Part shown: one piece after another, positions 11,352 to 19,340 of the stretch
Layout: every line of letters starts with the position of its first letter
Numbering within the stretch: position 1 is the stretch's first letter
IMG/VR virus record: IMGVR_UViG_3300012086_000038
Coordinates: 451 to 64,450 of that record
Direction: 5' to 3' (one strand)
Source: a virus
DNA length: 64,000 nt
Program-made: the position numbers and the translations under genes
Notes under the pieces: generated by a model
What the model was told of the DNA's origin: nothing
The model's database searches: none
Seen by the model: the letters and a program-made list of their open reading frames with translations, nothing else

Positions 11352-11981
11352 ATGTATGAATATGCAGATATAACAGCATATAAACCAGACAGAAACGGTA
11401 CTCATTTGCAGATTTTCATTCCAGAAAGAAACTTAGAAGAATCTATTCTGAAGAAGAGAATTAAGGATTGTATGGTTTGGCTGGATGATGGCAGACATAT
11501 AAGTGCAGAACAGAGGAAGAAGACATATGCAACCATCAATGACATAGCCGATTTTACCGGATATCTCCCGGAAGAAATGAAAGAGCGGCTGAAATACGAA
11601 CATATCTTACGGACTGGATGTAAATATTTTTCGCTGTCAGACTGCACGATGGATACAGCCAGAGCTTTCATCAATACTATATTGGACTTGGCATTAGAAA
11701 TGGGGATACCGTTACTGGATTTTGGCAGCAACAGGACAGATGATATTGGACATTACCTATATGCTTGTTTGAAGAATGGTAAATGTGCTGTTTGTGGAAG
11801 GTGGGGTGAAACACATCATGTGGATGCTATTGGAATGGGAAACGACCGCAGGGAAGTGGATGATTCAGACAGCAGGAAGATTTGCCTTTGCAGAATACAT
11901 CATACAGAAGCACACACCATAGGAATGGAGCGATTTGAGGAACGGTACAAGGTTTATGGAATCAAGTATACAATAAATTAA
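11352..11981 (+). CDS. Putative HNH-type nuclease
   Basis: ISAEQRKK.YA; CAVCG..GETHHVDAIGMG...CLCRIHHTEAH. Confidence 0.8.
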   Translation: MYEYADITAYKPDRNGTHLQIFIPERNLEESILKKRIKDCMVWLDDGRHISAEQRKKTYATINDIADFTGYLPEEMKERLKYEHILRTGCKYFSLSDCTMDTARAFINTILDLALEMGIPLLDFGSNRTDDIGHYLYACLKNGKCAVCGRWGETHHVDAIGMGNDRREVDDSDSRKICLCRIHHTEAHTIGMERFEERYKVYGIKYTIN

Positions 11982-13791: not shown

Positions 13792-14064
13792 GTGGTGTTG
13801 GTGGTCAGAAAAAGCGATATAGTAAGAAGCCTAGTAAAAGAGCAGCAATACAAGAATGCATTGCAGATTGCTAAAGACTTCAGGCTTGGTATAACGCCGG
13901 AACAATCTTCAAAGATGAAGAAAGCGTATGAGTGCATGGTTCATGAAAGGTTCTACCTCTCCCTGGGTGAAAACATACAGGCAAGGATAGATGAAGGCAT
14001 CGAAACGATAGTCAGCATCTACGGAAGGGAGAAAGAAGAGCATGGCAAAGTTGTACACAAGTAG
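13792..14064 (+). CDS. Hypothetical protein
   Basis: GTG start behind GAAAGG; overlaps next gene. Confidence 0.65.
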   Translation: MVLVVRKSDIVRSLVKEQQYKNALQIAKDFRLGITPEQSSKMKKAYECMVHERFYLSLGENIQARIDEGIETIVSIYGREKEEHGKVVHK

Positions 14065-14551
14065 GTTTAGCAACAAGGAATTGGAGTCAGAAAAGTATAC
14101 CGTTGTCGGAGTGGTAAGAAGTATGCCGAGGTTTCCGGTAAAGTATATGATATCCGGTAACATAACGCAGATTGCACCTCCGGGCTATCTTTGGAATGAG
14201 AATGACAGGGATAGATTCAAAGCTCCATATTACAGACATTTAGAAAAAGCAGGTTATCCACTCATAGGGGCAATCATCAGAACCTATTTGGAAAATGGGA
14301 AAGATGTAGTGCTTTGTTGCTATGAGGACGTAAGGAAACCTAATGAATGGTGTCATAGATTGGTATTTGCTGAATGGTGGTATGAAAAAACTGGACAGAA
14401 GATTGATGAATTGCCAGACCCATCAGAAATTAAGGGAGTTAAGAAAACAGCAGATACAAAGCGTGAGGAATTAAAAACGGAACCAGAATACGAACAGTTG
14501 TCCTTTATGAATGACTTATATCGTTCCATGTATCCTCACTATACAACATAA
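14042..14551 (+). CDS. DUF488-like protein
   Basis: KLYTSRF...IAPP...VVLCCYED....WCHRLVFAEWW. Confidence 0.7.
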   Translation: MAKLYTSRFSNKELESEKYTVVGVVRSMPRFPVKYMISGNITQIAPPGYLWNENDRDRFKAPYYRHLEKAGYPLIGAIIRTYLENGKDVVLCCYEDVRKPNEWCHRLVFAEWWYEKTGQKIDELPDPSEIKGVKKTADTKREELKTEPEYEQLSFMNDLYRSMYPHYTT

Positions 14552-14627
14552 CCGCCAATGGCTCAGTGGTAGAGCAACAGACTCTTAATCTGTAGGTCGC
14601 AGTGTTCGACTCCTGCTTGGCGGACCA
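14552..14627 (+). tRNA. tRNA-Lys (CTT) with encoded CCA; one extra bulged T in the T-stem
   Basis: Acceptor CCGCCAA/TTGGCGG; D-arm GCTC-AGTGGTA-GAGC; anticodon arm ACAGA-CTCTTAA-TCTGT; T-arm GCAG(T)G-TTCGACT-CCTGC; ACCA end. Confidence 0.9.
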
Positions 14628-14635
14628 AAAACAAG

Positions 14636-14670
14636 GCTCAGTATCTTCGGATGCTGAGCTATAATTTATT
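14636..14670 (+). terminator. Hairpin GCTCAGTATC-TTCG-GATGCTGAGC after the tRNA
   Basis: 10-bp stem with UUCG tetraloop followed by AT-rich tract. Confidence 0.65.
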
Positions 14671-14691: not shown

Positions 14692-14719
14692 TTGACACCA
14701 GAGGTGGGTAATTTAAGAT
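14692..14719 (+). promoter_or_regulatory. Promoter TTGACA-CCAGAGGTGGGTAATT-TAAGAT
   Basis: Shared spacer motif; A-tract upstream (UP element-like). Confidence 0.7.
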
Positions 14720-14766: not shown

Positions 14767-15000
14767 ATGGCTCACTTAGAAAAAGCTGAAGATAAAATAT
14801 TTAATAGAATTTTTGTTGGAACAAAGGAAGTTATGAATAAGGACTATCGTATGATTGAAAGGAAAGTAACATGTATCCTTGATAAAAATTGTGTAAGATA
14901 TGTGGTTGTTGAAAATGGAAAGCAGATTTCCAGAAGAGAATTTGCGAATGGCAAAGAAGAGCTTTGCTTCAAAAATGCTACGAAAGCATTAAATAAATAA
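14767..15000 (+). CDS. Hypothetical protein (monocistronic)
   Basis: GGAGGT RBS, own promoter and terminator. Confidence 0.65.
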   Translation: MAHLEKAEDKIFNRIFVGTKEVMNKDYRMIERKVTCILDKNCVRYVVVENGKQISRREFANGKEELCFKNATKALNK

Positions 15001-15055: not shown

Positions 15056-15140
15056 AATGCTTGGGAAGTTTTACAGCCAAATTCAGAGGCTTTACCGTTA
15101 CAGGCAATAAATAACAAAGCAAAGAAAGAAGGTGATGAAT

Positions 15141-16580
15141 ATGCCGCAATTCCAGAATCCAGGAGCGTTCTTTCTGGGAACCTTAGTACCATCAGAACAA
15201 CGATTCTTGAAAGTATTGTTAGAGAACGCCAGAAAGAACGGATATACGAAGCTGGTAGAGCCGTGTGCCGGAGCGTTTGCAATGTCGCACTTAGCTGTAC
15301 AGTCAGGCTTTAAGCCTGAACAGATTGAAGCTTCAGATGTGTCTATGTTTACGTCCATTATGGGTTATGCCATTACTGGAAAATCTTTAGAGGAACTTGA
15401 AATACAGGCAAAAGGGTTTTCGCACGAAGAATTGCTTAATCCGGCTATAGCATTGTACGCATGGAAATATTTAAGCATGGTAAAGAATGCTGGAAAAGAA
15501 TATTTCTATAATTTCATGATTGACTTAGAAGACAGAAGGGAAGAGCATATTAAGGCAATCGAAGAGCAGTTGCAAAGAGCCAAAGAATTGCTTGGAGGAA
15601 TGAGTTACCGTGCATTGGATATGTGGGAACACATGGATGAAATCATAGATGATGAACAATGCATTGTGATAGCAAACCCTCCGACGTATACTACAGGATT
15701 TGAAAAGTATTACGATACCGGAGGGAGGATGACCTGGAAGGAGCCGGAGTACCAGATTTTTGACCCGAATACCGGATTGAAGCAATATATGGATATGTGC
15801 AAAGATGCAAAATGCCTTGTGCTTTGCTACGAAGAAAATGAGCCGGGGAAGACGGCTGGTACTCCGGTATTTGCCAGATATGGCGTTCGCAATGGAGTCA
15901 ATGTATATCTGACATCAAACAGACCGGAAGAAGCTGCTGATTTAGCGAATGGCCGGAAGATTGCAAGACCGGGAGAAAGCAAGCTGGAACAATTGGATTG
16001 CTCCATGCTTCCGAGGGATTATGTGATTACGGAGAAAAGCAAGGTACAGTTATGTCAGATTGAAAGGGCTGAAGCGCAGTATTACCGTCAATTGTGGACT
16101 CATAACTTTGTTGGTTCATCAGCACCTATCAACATAGCGGTTTTGATAGATGGGAAGATAGCTGGTGTGTTCGGTGTAGATAAATCGGCATTAACCATGG
16201 GAGCGTTCGGTACACAGGTATCAGATGCTATTTTCTTGATGTATGGCATGACGGTTCCGCATCCGAATTACCGTCTGAACCGTCTGCTGACAATGCTGGC
16301 TCAGAACAAAGAATTTGTATTCAAGATATGCACTGACTTGGAAAAAGAAAAGGTCGGGCATCTGAAAACAGTTCAGATGACAAAGTATCCGGAGGCAAAA
16401 GAAATGCGTGGGATTATGAAACTCACGAAACGGATTCCAGATAAAAAGATGGGCTTCCGTCTGACTTATGAATCAGAACTGAAAGATCGCACAGAAAAGC
16501 AGACATTGGATGAATGGTTAAGGAGGGAAGAAAAGTGGAAGAAGGAAAGAGCGAAAGCAAAATCCGTTACGAACAAATAG
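15141..16580 (+). CDS. Fusion: Dam-like amino-methyltransferase domain plus C-terminal GNAT/Mom-like domain
   Basis: SAM-binding LVEPCAGAFAMS...EASD; catalytic-like IVIANPPTY; C-terminal AQYYRQLWTH...AVLIDGKIAGVFGV...RLNRLL reminiscent of Mom-like GNATs. Confidence 0.6.
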   Translation: MPQFQNPGAFFLGTLVPSEQRFLKVLLENARKNGYTKLVEPCAGAFAMSHLAVQSGFKPEQIEASDVSMFTSIMGYAITGKSLEELEIQAKGFSHEELLNPAIALYAWKYLSMVKNAGKEYFYNFMIDLEDRREEHIKAIEEQLQRAKELLGGMSYRALDMWEHMDEIIDDEQCIVIANPPTYTTGFEKYYDTGGRMTWKEPEYQIFDPNTGLKQYMDMCKDAKCLVLCYEENEPGKTAGTPVFARYGVRNGVNVYLTSNRPEEAADLANGRKIARPGESKLEQLDCSMLPRDYVITEKSKVQLCQIERAEAQYYRQLWTHNFVGSSAPINIAVLIDGKIAGVFGVDKSALTMGAFGTQVSDAIFLMYGMTVPHPNYRLNRLLTMLAQNKEFVFKICTDLEKEKVGHLKTVQMTKYPEAKEMRGIMKLTKRIPDKKMGFRLTYESELKDRTEKQTLDEWLRREEKWKKERAKAKSVTNK

Positions 16581-17455
16581 CGGATATGGGTTCCGGTCTG
16601 ATTATTGCAAAAGTTCCTGTTGAGTGCATCCGGGAACAGGATATAAATGCCAGAATCATGAAGAATGAAATGCAAAGGCAGCTCACTGACAATATCAAGA
16701 AAAGAGGTCAGTTAGAATCCCTGCCTTTATGTGCATTGACCGAAAACGGAAACAGAATCGAAATCATATCAGGGCATCACAGGATACGTTCCGGAAAAGA
16801 TGCAGGAATGAAAGAGTTCTTTGTTGTACTGGATATAAGCGGACTGAACCGTTCTAAACTTGTAGCAAAGCAGATAGCCCACAATGCCATATCCGGATTT
16901 GATGACCAATCCACATTGAAAGAATTAGCAAAGATGATTGAGGATGTGGATGATATGATTGAAAGCTATGCCGGTAAAGATATTCTGGCAGAACCAGAAG
17001 CGGAATTGGAAAAGTATTTATCTCCAACTGTAGAGTTTGACTGGAAGAATATCACGTTTACCTTCCTGCCTCATCAGATAAAGGATACGGCAAAACTCAT
17101 AGATGCTCTGGAAAATACGAAGCCGGATTTTCTGGGAGTAGCCGACATTGAACAGCATAAGCCATTGTTGGAAACGCTGTCAAAATACCAGCAGTTCTCC
17201 AACGTGAAGAATACAGGAGCCGCAATCCATGCAATGATAAAATGTACAGAGCAGATGTTTGAGGATATTGGATATTCGGGAGATGGAGAGTGGGAGCAGC
17301 TAACAAGTATCTTTGGCAGTAGCGCAGTACCGGCAGAAGCCGCAGAAGTTATCAAGGAGGCCGTAAAGAAAATGGTTGATGACGGTGTAGTAGGGCAGAA
17401 AAATAAGTGGCAAGCCATTGAATACCTAGCGGCAGATTATCTGGCTGGAAAGTAG
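16535..17455 (+). CDS. ParB/sulfiredoxin-like domain protein
   Basis: QLTDNIKKRGQLESLP...EIISGHHRIRS...QIAHNAISG; overlaps upstream gene. Confidence 0.85.
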   Translation: MEEGKSESKIRYEQIADMGSGLIIAKVPVECIREQDINARIMKNEMQRQLTDNIKKRGQLESLPLCALTENGNRIEIISGHHRIRSGKDAGMKEFFVVLDISGLNRSKLVAKQIAHNAISGFDDQSTLKELAKMIEDVDDMIESYAGKDILAEPEAELEKYLSPTVEFDWKNITFTFLPHQIKDTAKLIDALENTKPDFLGVADIEQHKPLLETLSKYQQFSNVKNTGAAIHAMIKCTEQMFEDIGYSGDGEWEQLTSIFGSSAVPAEAAEVIKEAVKKMVDDGVVGQKNKWQAIEYLAADYLAGK

Positions 17456-17464
17456 GTGTAAAGC

Positions 17465-17944
17465 ATGGCAGCACCGTTAAAATATAACCAGGCATATCAT
17501 GATGATTGGGCATGGTCCTTGGCTATAAAAGGTGCTGACGATAATGAAATTGCTGAAGCATTTGGTATATCTGCCAGGACAGTTAATAGGTGGAAAAAGG
17601 ACCATGAGAGTTTTGCACAGGCGTTGACAATGGGAAAAGATGCGGCAGATGCAAAAGTGGAAAGAAAATTGTATGAACGTGCAACTGGATATAAGTATGA
17701 GGAAGTTGAGACAGTCATGGAAATTGATGCTAATGGAAACAGGAAACCTGCAAAGGTAAAACGTGTGCAGAAAGAATGCCCACCGGATGTATTGGCACAG
17801 ATGTACTGGCTGAACAACAGAAAATCCGTACAGTATAAAAGAAATCCTGAAAACTTTGTTAAGCCTGAAAGGATAGAAACAGAGGATGAAGTGGTGTTCT
17901 ATCTGCCAGATAACGGAAGGGGTGAAAGTGGTGGGGAAGAATAA
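17465..17944 (+). CDS. terS: Terminase small subunit
   Basis: HTH (EIAEAFGISARTVNRWKK), ADAKVERKLYERATG, PPDV.A..YWLNNR; precedes terL. Confidence 0.8.
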   Translation: MAAPLKYNQAYHDDWAWSLAIKGADDNEIAEAFGISARTVNRWKKDHESFAQALTMGKDAADAKVERKLYERATGYKYEEVETVMEIDANGNRKPAKVKRVQKECPPDVLAQMYWLNNRKSVQYKRNPENFVKPERIETEDEVVFYLPDNGRGESGGEE

Positions 17945-19340
17945 AATAATTATCAGGCCCCAACCCGGACCGCAGGAAAAGTTTTTATCCACATCGGCAG
18001 ATATTTGTATTTATGGTGGAGCGGCAGGAGGTGGAAAGACATACGGCTTGTTACTGGAACCGCTCAGACATAAAAATAATCCGAATTTCGGTACTGTTAT
18101 CTTCAGACGTAATTATACACAGGTTACTGCTGAAGGCGGCCTATGGGATTCTAGCAAGAAAGTATACAGACATGTCAGAGGTGCAATATCGCTAAAAACG
18201 CCAAAACTTCATTGGGAATTTTCCGAAGGTGGGAAAGTGACATTTGCACACTTAGGAAGTGACAGCGATTGTGAAAGCTGGCAAGGTACTCAGATAACAA
18301 TGGTCGGATTTGACGAACTGACGCATTTTTCAAAGCATCAGTTTTTCTACATGTTATCACGTAACCGTTCGGATTCAGGTATTGCACCATATGTCAGAGC
18401 TACTTGTAATCCGGATGCAGATAGCTGGGTAGCTGAATTTATAGAATGGTGGATTGACCAAGAAACAGGATACCCGATACCGGAACGAAGTGGCAAGATA
18501 CGTTATATGGTCCGTATCAATGATGAAATAACATGGGCTGATACAAAAGATGAACTTGTTGCAAAAGGCATAGATAGAGAAGACATAAAAAGCGTCACTT
18601 TCATTGCCAGTACCTTGCAGGATAATCAAATATTGCTAAAAGTAGACCCCGGATATCTTGCGAATCTGAAGGCGTTGCCGCTCGTGGAACGTGAACGCTT
18701 ATTGTTTGGTAACTGGAAGATTAAACCAGCAGCAGGGTTGTTCTTTAAAAGAAGCCAAGTAGGTGAATTCCTTGAAGAAGTACCGAAAGATGTTGTTGTT
18801 TGGGCAAGAGGATGGGACCTTGCTGCCACATCTGAAGATGAAGACGGTGACCCAGCATATACGGCAGGGGTTTTAATTGGCAAACGGAGGAATGGAAGAT
18901 ATGTAGTAGCGAACGTAACGAATGTAAGATTAGCCGCTGGTGATGTAAGAAAACATGTTAAGAACACCTGCATCATGGACAGGAAGATATATAAACGTGT
19001 TGCCGAACGTCTGCCACAAGACCCAGGGCAAGCAGGGAAAGAACAGGCACAAAGTTACATCAAAATGCTTGCAGGATTTTACGTTAAAGCCATACCAGAG
19101 ACAGGAAGTAAAGAAGCAAGGGCAGAGCCATTCGCAGCACAATGGCAACCTGGTAATGTAGATATTGTTATTGGTGATTGGAACGAAAGCTATCTTGCAC
19201 AGCTTGAATCTTTTCCGGAAAGTAAATTTAAAGATATGGTTGATGCAAGCAGTTCAGCCTTTGCGGAGATTGAGAGTGGATATGCTACTTCACCACCGCC
19301 TGAAGGTCCTACAAAAGAAAGCTATTGGAAAGGGAGGTGA
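17931..19340 (+). CDS. terL: Terminase large subunit
   Basis: Walker A YGGAAGGGKT, Walker B VGFDELTHF, C-terminal nuclease RGWDLAA...DMVDA. Confidence 0.95.
   Translation: MGKNKIIIRPQPGPQEKFLSTSADICIYGGAAGGGKTYGLLLEPLRHKNNPNFGTVIFRRNYTQVTAEGGLWDSSKKVYRHVRGAISLKTPKLHWEFSEGGKVTFAHLGSDSDCESWQGTQITMVGFDELTHFSKHQFFYMLSRNRSDSGIAPYVRATCNPDADSWVAEFIEWWIDQETGYPIPERSGKIRYMVRINDEITWADTKDELVAKGIDREDIKSVTFIASTLQDNQILLKVDPGYLANLKALPLVERERLLFGNWKIKPAAGLFFKRSQVGEFLEEVPKDVVVWARGWDLAATSEDEDGDPAYTAGVLIGKRRNGRYVVANVTNVRLAAGDVRKHVKNTCIMDRKIYKRVAERLPQDPGQAGKEQAQSYIKMLAGFYVKAIPETGSKEARAEPFAAQWQPGNVDIVIGDWNESYLAQLESFPESKFKDMVDASSSAFAEIESGYATSPPPEGPTKESYWKGR

Follow-up and report, generated by a model that had tools for sequence, protein, structure and literature searches.

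A private tRNA linked to a Dam-like/GNAT-like fusion enzyme in a phage module: a candidate system for tRNA-dependent aminoacyl modification of DNA

The Mom protein of phage Mu is a GNAT-fold enzyme (PDB 8bv8) that transfers glycine from Gly-tRNAGly to the N6 position of adenine in double-stranded DNA (dsDNA); the adduct then undergoes a rearrangement (Silva et al. 2026, PMC13219725). In this study, we describe a phage module that may carry out a comparable reaction with another amino acid. The window, which is the whole stretch of DNA analysed here, comprises 64,000 nucleotides of IMG/VR record IMGVR_UViG_3300012086_000038, a complete 64.8-kb virus record (CheckV 100%) related to Faecalibacterium phage FP_Brigit. 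It carries, in this order, a gene of the DUF488 family, a tRNA-Lys(CUU) gene, a gene for a fusion protein with a Dam-like N-terminal half and a GNAT-like C-terminal half (74% identical to its FP_Brigit counterpart), and a gene for a ParB-like protein. A four-part module for DNA hypermodification is the best explanation of these components, and a non-canonical base modification, already proposed in an earlier note on this DNA, is still the best reading of their function. That the modification is a tRNA-dependent aminoacylation of phage DNA, lysine-derived in this phage, is in our judgement about an even bet, and we propose it by analogy because Mom moves glycine from Gly-tRNA to adenine N6.

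Compared with Mom, the fusion enzyme has several common features. Its C-terminal half has the GNAT fold (Mom chain 8bv8_B ranks 30th in Foldseek, with E 1.3e-3 and TMt 0.46), it would likewise be a late-expressed phage enzyme acting on adenine N6, and the link of the module to a tRNA would fit an aminoacyl-tRNA donor. Late expression is probable because the module lies directly upstream of the packaging genes, which it overlaps or nearly abuts. In contrast, Mom has no Dam-like domain, whereas the window enzyme has one and shows no membership of the Mom family at the sequence level. The window module further includes a DUF488 protein, a ParB-like protein and a tRNA gene of its own; this tRNA is of the Lys type instead of Mom's Gly, and the activity is here a predicted one.

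Further parallels are found for the single parts. FemXAB-type GNAT-fold transferases in Staphylococcus work with non-proteinogenic tRNA-Gly. They resemble the module in combining a GNAT-fold enzyme with dedicated tRNAs that depart from elongators in the D-loop and T-arm and are plausibly diverted from translation. However, their acceptor is a peptidoglycan precursor and their tRNAs are host-encoded and of Gly type only, whereas the tRNA of the window is encoded in the module and has a C1-G72 signature. Transferases of this type are mentioned in the legend of Fig. 5 of PMC13219725. As for the ParB-like partner, the protein ParB176 activates the phage thymine dioxygenase 5mYOX176 specifically on dsDNA, where the enzyme requires it (PMC13229309). 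In both systems the ParB-like protein stands alone, has no obvious DNA-binding domain and is encoded beside a post-replicative DNA-modifying enzyme, but 5mYOX176 belongs to the iron/2-oxoglutarate dioxygenase class, and a similar role of the ParB-like protein in the window module is proposed by analogy. ParB-fold proteins are also often fused to phage DNA methylases. Lastly, the alpha-class enzymes Dam, T4Dam and DpnM share with the fusion protein the overall fold and the order of motif I, the strand-2 acid and motif IV. The window's family differs from them by an N-P-P-x-Y motif with a poorly conserved first residue, by the absence of the second motif I glycine and of a PF02086 match, and by the fusion to a GNAT-like domain.

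The private tRNA and its linkage to the module

An exhaustive search returned 910 cluster representatives of the fusion protein, and about 150 loci were compared. These were IMG/VR contigs, prophages from a one-per-species genome collection (hosts in seven phyla: Bacillota, Synergistota, Desulfovibrio, Bacteroidota, Acidobacteriota, Chloroflexota and Actinomycetota) and three cultured phages, namely FP_Brigit, Microbacterium phage ValentiniPuff and Mycobacterium phage Jeon. Across these loci, the four parts retain the order DUF488, tRNA, fusion, ParB-like. The ParB-like partner, to which the earlier note had drawn attention, is conserved and immediately follows the fusion gene in 149 of the 150 loci, and a DUF488 homologue is detected upstream by tblastn in 125 of 150, to which hidden Markov model searches add the loci of ValentiniPuff, Jeon, Mariniphaga and Streptomyces. 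Genes for the terminase small subunit (TerS) and large subunit (TerL) follow downstream in many lineages. In Jeon they are not adjacent, so the terminase is a frequent neighbour and not a component, and the inclusion of TerS in the modification system by the earlier note could not be upheld. The bounds given there (15141-17944) do enclose three genes, but they miss the DUF488 gene and the tRNA just upstream. Of all parts of the module, these two tell us most about the chemistry.

The tRNA-Lys(CUU) is the only tRNA of the window and begins at the base after the DUF488 stop codon. ARAGORN reports it as Lys(ctt), and it scores 63.2 bits with the Rfam model RF00005 (gathering score 29). With default ARAGORN a tRNA was found in just 4 of 19 IMG/VR loci scanned, and the linkage appeared to be sporadic; this view was overturned by alignment, Rfam and profile search. 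First, nucleotide homology in close relatives extends through the tRNA and ends just past its 3' end, and in a 15-locus alignment the tRNA element has 89% column identity compared with about 73% for the flanks. Second, every copy tested scored 47-64 bits with the Rfam tRNA model. Third, profile search located a Lys-type element in 49 of 50 loci with an enzyme at 67% identity or more to that of the window (the exception has 438 nt of upstream flank) and a compact Gly-type element in all 30 loci of a clade at 59-62% identity. In the genome collection, a single same-strand tRNA lies 25-1180 nt upstream in 27 loci from five phyla, as located with Rfam. When identical relaxed ARAGORN settings were applied to both sides, a same-strand tRNA was present in 109 of 120 upstream flanks versus 16 of 135 downstream flanks. 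In ValentiniPuff, the module is at the extreme left end of the genome and a tRNA-like element at the extreme right end, and the two are adjacent in the concatemer. The tRNA is a component of the module and not a passer-by. An origin as an attP remnant was considered and rejected, as the tRNA is complete with an encoded CCA, has an acceptor unlike those of host tRNAs and lies far from lysogeny genes.

The most constant part of the private tRNA is its acceptor end. Besides the pairs C1-G72, C2-G71 and G3-C70, the window's copy has A73 as discriminator, its CCA is encoded, and its T stem contains a 1-nt bulge; this copy has the cloverleaf, CUU anticodon and A73 of an elongator tRNA-Lys and lacks the G1-C72 start and the regular 5-bp T stem. 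The acceptor begins with CCG in 27 of 27 Rfam-located copies, and CGG precedes the discriminator in 26 of them (in one copy, L111, the parse of the 3' end was shifted by one base). The same CCG...CGG end is found in all 30 profile-located Gly-type copies and in all 15 aligned copies of the Lys clade (14 Lys, 1 Pro), while acceptor pairs 4-7 vary with compensatory changes. Among 59 distinct tRNAs of three host genomes, none starts with CCG, and C1 occurs in tRNA-Pro and initiator tRNA-Met only. The CCA is encoded in 63 of 71 distinct private-tRNA sequences.

In contrast to the fixed acceptor end, the anticodon class switches with the enzyme clade. Lys (CUU) is found in the window's clade and in Ammonifex/Desulfovibrio, Mariniphaga and Promineifilaceae metagenome-assembled genomes, and FP_Brigit is likewise of the Lys type; Gly (UCC, CCC or GCC) in a Lachnospiraceae/Oscillospiraceae clade and in Jeon; Pro (UGG or CGG) in loci L017 and L134; and Arg (UCU or UCG) in Dehalococcoidia and Streptomyces. 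The discriminator follows the class, being A in 32 of 33 Lys copies and both Pro copies, and U in 25/25 Gly and 6/6 Arg copies. Within a class the isoacceptor varies and the amino acid stays constant, which fits selection on charging identity and not on codon reading. L017 combines a Pro anticodon arm with the Lys clade's acceptor and T arms. Judged by the tRNA body, the nearest host tRNA of the window's copy is tRNA-Lys(CUU) and that of a Dehalococcoidia copy is tRNA-Arg(UCU); genuine tRNAs of different classes have seemingly been recruited and provided with one common acceptor end.

Many copies look poorly suited to decoding. The 1-nt T-stem bulge is present in all Lys-type copies, including the window's, and most of them have U37 and have lost the G18G19/C56 elbow pair. 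Gly-type copies have 3-bp D stems and 4-bp T stems. In the Streptomyces prophages L140, L142 and L145 and in ValentiniPuff (L183:3855-3927), the cloverleaf and the CCG...CGG end are kept, and several of these copies have irregular anticodon loops that ARAGORN cannot type.

The fusion enzyme and its protein partners

The open reading frame (ORF) of the fusion protein spans 15132-16580 (482 codons). The ATG at 15141 is preceded by a Shine-Dalgarno-like AGGTG and homologues align from residue 4, so the start at 15141, as in the earlier note, is right and the protein has 479 residues. Residues are numbered here in the 482-residue frame, and 3 should be subtracted for the 479-residue protein. The earlier description of EPCAG and NPPTY motifs joined to a separate C-terminal alpha/beta domain also agrees with our results, since both motifs were located and residues 302-466 match PF22559 (GNAT-phage-like; E 2.5e-53, 180.7 bits with a cut-off of 27, profile positions 1-163 of 164). 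Residues 14-284 match PF22555 (DAM-like-phage1; E 1.2e-75, 254.7 bits with a cut-off of 27, profile positions 1-273 of 274), and the whole protein matches phrog_7858 with E 9e-172. Agreement of this kind greatly exceeds what chance would give. No NCBIfam model matched it, and a sequence search of the PDB gave no match. An AlphaFold2 model was built on 94 diverse homologues (pLDDT 94.4, pTM 0.86), and the same 94 sequences are the basis of the residue counts given below.

In the N-terminal half, Foldseek matched EcoDam, T4Dam and DpnM (E about 1e-4, TMt 0.40-0.50, 270-300 aligned columns), and the match includes both the Rossmann-type catalytic domain and the helical DNA-binding region of the Dam type. 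Motif I reads E-P-x-x-G, with P44 in 86/94 and G47 in 91/94 homologues, and aligns to DLFCG of T4Dam; the acid D69 at the end of strand 2 is found in 91/94. The consensus of motif IV is N-P-P-x-Y (N 61/94, P 83/94, P 91/94, Y 64/94), and the window's NPPTY departs from the canonical (D/N)PP(Y/F/W) by one extra residue before the aromatic. There was no match to the D12-class methyltransferase family PF02086 at E <= 0.1, and hhalign against T4Dam gave a probability of 10%, with motif I alone aligned. The Dam-like half is a remote relative of the Dam fold in which the adenine pocket and an adenosine-type ligand site look retained. Judged from sequence, E-P-x-x-G and D69 are compatible with such a ligand. 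The catalytic Asn/Asp is not strictly kept.

Some homologues depart from this architecture. Five of them (P0150, P0167, P0176, P0195 and P0220) are about 670-790 residues long and have an insertion of roughly 250-280 residues in the Dam-like domain, right after the N-P-P motif, where the Pfam match breaks at profile position 178. The insert contains no reported Pfam domain; it may be an intein or a domain inserted at the active-site motif. Another homologue, P0218 (619 residues), has an HNH endonuclease domain fused C-terminal of the GNAT-like domain, which recalls pairings of modification enzymes with nucleases.

The GNAT-like half is conserved as strongly as the Dam-like half, and H324, G348, R381, L385, T413, R426, G427 and Y446 are near-invariant. 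The AlphaFold/Foldseek check suggested in the earlier note confirmed a GNAT-like fold, with RimI and Naa50 as the best matches (TMt 0.56-0.61) and Mom among the further ones. The beta4-alpha3 loop, between the strand at 366-374 and the helix at 382-390, reads TVPHPNYR with the family consensus P-H-x-x-x-R and has no glycines; in sequence, family consensus and AlphaFold2 secondary structure, the acetyl-CoA motif Q/R-x-x-G-x-G/A is absent from this loop. GNATs hold the acyl donor in the region of strand beta4 and helix alpha3, and it is on these two elements that the residues distinguishing Lys-linked and Gly-linked enzymes are concentrated. From the Lys to the Gly class, D350 is replaced by S, M370 by W, G372 by V, T374 by K and T387 by Y. 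G372 occurs in every one of the 23 Lys representatives, distant ones among them, and both independent Gly lineages (the gut clade and Jeon) lack the loop 354-363. These class-specific residues are suggestive of a larger, acid-lined pocket for lysine, with the reservation that independent switches are few. In a maximum-likelihood tree, the Gly-linked enzymes from the gut group in a single clade with full support, which is nested within Lys-linked lineages.

The 313-residue partner resembles ParB in several searches. It matches phrog_7405 with E 8e-98, ParB-like PHROGs with E 1.6e-9 and ParB chains in the PDB with E 3.5e-4; the ParB_N match (E 5e-4, 20.5 bits) is below the cut-off of 26.3. Its N-terminal domain carries a variant of box II, G87-H-H-R90 (G87-H-H-R-I-R), and its C-terminal part has no domain assignment. 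With the chromosome-partition model TIGR00180 it scores 21.3 bits, versus a cut-off of 58.45, and no helix-turn-helix domain was found in Pfam and NCBIfam scans. A complex prediction for the fusion and ParB-like proteins, in which both chains were folded without alignments, scored 0.00 and speaks neither for nor against a contact.

The DUF488 protein has weak Pfam matches below cut-off (PF04343, E 0.006; PF22751 DUF488-N3a, E 0.025). Its AlphaFold2 model (pLDDT 84) matches E. coli YeaO in the AlphaFold database (TM 0.71, E 1.9e-3) as well as Rv3073c, and a Foldseek search of the PDB returned weak Cys-phosphatase-like matches alone (E >= 0.18); a sequence search of the PDB gave no match. C93, E95, D96 and C104-H105-R106 are invariant in 27 homologues. 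The conserved Cys-His-Arg site and the phosphatase-like fold are the only clues to its role. In Jeon, the DUF488 profile matches gp65 (L003:3928-4353, E 3.9e-15), which lies directly upstream of the tRNA-Gly and is annotated as a virion structural protein. The annotation is possibly an error; alternatively, virions might contain the DUF488 protein.

The protein family itself has already been curated. PF22555 and PF22559 are both Pfam families, and the window protein is a full-length, high-scoring member of them. The neighbourhood of PF22555, PF22559 and PF22751 in Pfam is the same as our module at the protein level, with the same neighbours, and presumably it goes back to comparative genomics of the Aravind laboratory. 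Literature searches, which did not cover the comparative-genomics papers of that laboratory, returned no description of the module, the private tRNA, the acceptor hallmark or the class switching. What is newly added here is the Lys(CUU) tRNA in the window, the four-class switching with a co-varying discriminator, the fixed acceptor end, DUF488 as the fourth conserved part, and the donor-site residues that co-vary with tRNA class.

Possible functions of the module

The genes, the folds, the conserved synteny, the features of the tRNA and their co-variation with the enzyme clade are direct observations, and a reaction scheme can be proposed from them by analogy. First, the host lysyl-tRNA synthetase would charge the phage tRNA-Lys(CUU) through its CUU anticodon and A73, and the fusion enzyme would recognise the fixed C1-G72/C2-G71/G3-C70 acceptor end. 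Second, the Dam-like half would bind dsDNA and flip the target adenine into the N-P-P-x-Y pocket, and the GNAT-like half would place the lysyl group on adenine N6, just as Mom places glycine there. The lysyl adduct may then rearrange like the Mom product, and the Dam-like half may additionally use S-adenosylmethionine (SAM). The two-step modification suggested in the earlier note, understood as methylation plus acylation, is possible. The ParB-like protein might load or activate the enzyme on dsDNA, as in the ParB-dependent phage thymine dioxygenases. The likely purpose would be to shield virion DNA from host nucleases.

We also propose, as a possible but still tentative extension, that the system is programmable. 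Here the acceptor end would be a fixed handle for the enzyme, and the anticodon arm and discriminator would set, through the host synthetase, which amino acid is placed on adenine. Lineages could then have switched the adduct (glycyl, lysyl, arginyl or prolyl) by swapping the tRNA body, as in L017, and the window phage would carry a lysine-derived, positively charged adenine adduct undescribed in any DNA. To the best of our knowledge, Mom has until now been the only enzyme known to place an amino acid from a charged tRNA on DNA, and glycine is the only known adduct. If the family uses Lys-, Arg- and Pro-type private tRNAs in the manner of Mom, natural DNA chemistry would gain cationic amino-acid adducts, and there would be a class of non-translational phage tRNAs that most tRNA finders miss or mislabel. 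It would also explain the very common pair of a hypothetical protein and a ParB-like protein that leads the packaging operons of gut, rumen and soil phages, and would provide a modular way to write different groups onto DNA. The proposal is directly testable because three cultured phages, FP_Brigit, ValentiniPuff and Jeon, carry the module.

Several observations weigh against the aminoacyl modification of DNA. The fusion family is known from sequence and predicted structure alone. The Mom-like character that the earlier note had assigned to the GNAT half holds for the fold and does not hold for the family: RimI and Naa50, not Mom, are the closest structural matches, the Pfam scan of the fusion protein gave no match to the Mom family PF25680, and hhalign against Mom gave a probability of 0.5% with only a weak local R-x-x-W-x-H resemblance. 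No equivalents of Mom's essential R111 and S124 were found in the GNAT half by these comparisons. On the side of the tRNA, Jeon's tRNA-Gly is the one clear exception to the acceptor hallmark, with a normal GCG start, and no tRNA was found in L133 and L139 despite adequate flank. The window's own tRNA is the most canonical of its clade, as it keeps A37, G18G19 and C56, and AAG makes up 45% of the lysine codons of the phage (527/1173), so a decoding role for this copy is possible. The correlation between enzyme and tRNA class is largely vertical inheritance, with few independent switches. The Dam-like half also keeps a cofactor-type motif I and the near-invariant D69, and 30 relatives, namely FP_Brigit (gp17, L001:2993-4171) and 29 other loci, have a phage SAM synthetase (methionine adenosyltransferase) gene at a distance of 1.8-3 kb upstream of the module; it is absent from the window. 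This gene hints at a SAM demand in these phages, and SAM use by the Dam-like half, for plain or additional methylation, is possible.

These last points would be expected if the module encoded an ordinary or orphan SAM-dependent N6-adenine DNA methyltransferase that places N6-methyladenine against restriction, with the GNAT half as a non-catalytic or regulatory appendage and the tRNA linkage unrelated. The Dam-like fold with its helical DNA-binding region, the conservation of E-P-x-x-G, D69 and the motif IV prolines, and one UniRef name, "putative antirestriction adenine methyltransferase", agree with this explanation. However, we regard it as unlikely. The motif IV Asn is kept in only 61 of the 94 homologues and an extra residue precedes the aromatic, PF02086 does not match, and motif I alone aligns to T4Dam. 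Moreover, the GNAT domain is equally conserved, with H324, R381, R426 and G427 near-invariant, and the fixed acceptor end of the private tRNA, the DUF488 protein and the co-variation of GNAT residues with tRNA class are left unexplained.

Distinctly unlikely in our view, the module could also be directed at RNA, in which case the fusion, DUF488 and ParB/Srx-fold proteins would modify, repair or shield the phage tRNA or its aminoacyl group and thereby evade anticodon nucleases and other tRNA-targeting defences or reprogram translation. Among nucleic acids, only the tRNA has a demonstrated tie to the module, and anticodon nucleases are known to attack Lys and Arg tRNAs. DUF488 weakly resembles Cys-phosphatases, and the ParB/Srx fold includes kinases. 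GNAT toxins acetylate aminoacyl-tRNAs (PMC7595197 and PMC7367177). On the other hand, the structures nearest to the N-terminal half belong to DNA adenine methyltransferases and align along their entire length, DNA-modifying enzymes are known to have ParB-like partners, the module heads the packaging operon in many lineages, and many of the tRNA copies look unfit for translation. One specific reaction of this kind, methylation of A37 in the private tRNA (m6A37), was rejected, as position 37 is U in most Lys-type copies.

Finally, phage tRNAs are common, and a hitch-hiking or codon-supplementing tRNA at an early/late insertion hot spot, with no tie to an enzyme whose donor would be an acyl-CoA or another small molecule, would suit the frequent AAG codons, the canonical A37, G18G19 and C56 of the window's copy and the moron-like ORF and terminator-like hairpin between tRNA and fusion gene, but it is very improbable given that position, strand and acceptor hallmark are kept over seven phyla and four anticodon classes, that the hallmark occurs in 0/59 host tRNAs, that isoacceptor choice varies within a class, that degenerate decoding features are frequent, and that the canonical acetyl-CoA motif is missing from the GNAT half.

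Layout of the locus and minor observations

The positions of the features are collected in Table 1. The fusion, ParB-like and TerS genes are co-oriented and closely spaced or overlapping at the head of the packaging operon, just as first described: the ParB-like gene overlaps the fusion gene by 67 nt and is separated from TerS by a 9-nt gap. A portal gene follows downstream of TerL on the + strand. A search for sequencing runs containing this DNA listed no RNA run; the DNA runs are fungus metagenome runs of 2018, one of which may be the source sample.

Table 1. Features of the module and of the adjoining packaging genes, in window positions.
Feature	Position	Strand	Evidence or remark
DUF488-family gene (169 aa)	14042..14551	+	first gene of the module
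tRNA-Lys(CUU)	14552..14627	+	ARAGORN, Rfam RF00005
Terminator-like hairpin (11 bp), just 3' of the tRNA	14635..14660	+	consensus scan and sequence
77-aa ORF between tRNA and fusion gene	14767..15000	+	non-conserved
Dam-like/GNAT-like fusion gene (479 aa)	15141..16580	+	PF22555, PF22559, phrog_7858
Dam-like domain of the fusion	about 15171-15983	+	PF22555
EPCAG, motif I-like (residues 43-47, 482-aa numbering)	15258..15272	+	
NPPTY, motif IV variant (residues 182-186, 482-aa numbering)	15675..15689	+	
GNAT-like domain of the fusion	about 16035-16529	+	PF22559
ParB/Srx-fold partner (313 aa)	16514..17455	+	phrog_7405, ParB-like PHROGs
Terminase small subunit (TerS)	17465..17944	+	phrog_309, E 4.9e-41
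Terminase large subunit (TerL)	17886..19340	+	Terminase_6N and Terminase_6C; phrog_979, E 7e-168

Between the tRNA and the fusion gene, the window has a stretch of its own. The hairpin is not conserved, and the homology of relatives stops at 14637. A promoter-like TTGACA-16-TAAGAT at 14692-14719 precedes the 77-aa ORF, for which there was no Pfam or PHROG match and which tblastn found in only 2 of 150 loci; it is probably outside the module. A G/C-rich run followed by a T run lies after this ORF, and the segment 14635-15060 with the hairpin, the promoter-like site and the ORF resembles a moron inserted into the module.

Two further observations concern more distant positions. An HNHc_6-type nuclease gene (PF16784, E 5e-32) is found at 11352-11981, upstream of the late region of the window, and such a gene often goes together with terminase function in cos/HNH phages. 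In two Dehalococcoidia prophages, matches to the type II hammerhead ribozyme above the Rfam gathering score lie 2.4-3 kb upstream of the module (L136:996-1059 and L137:473-536).

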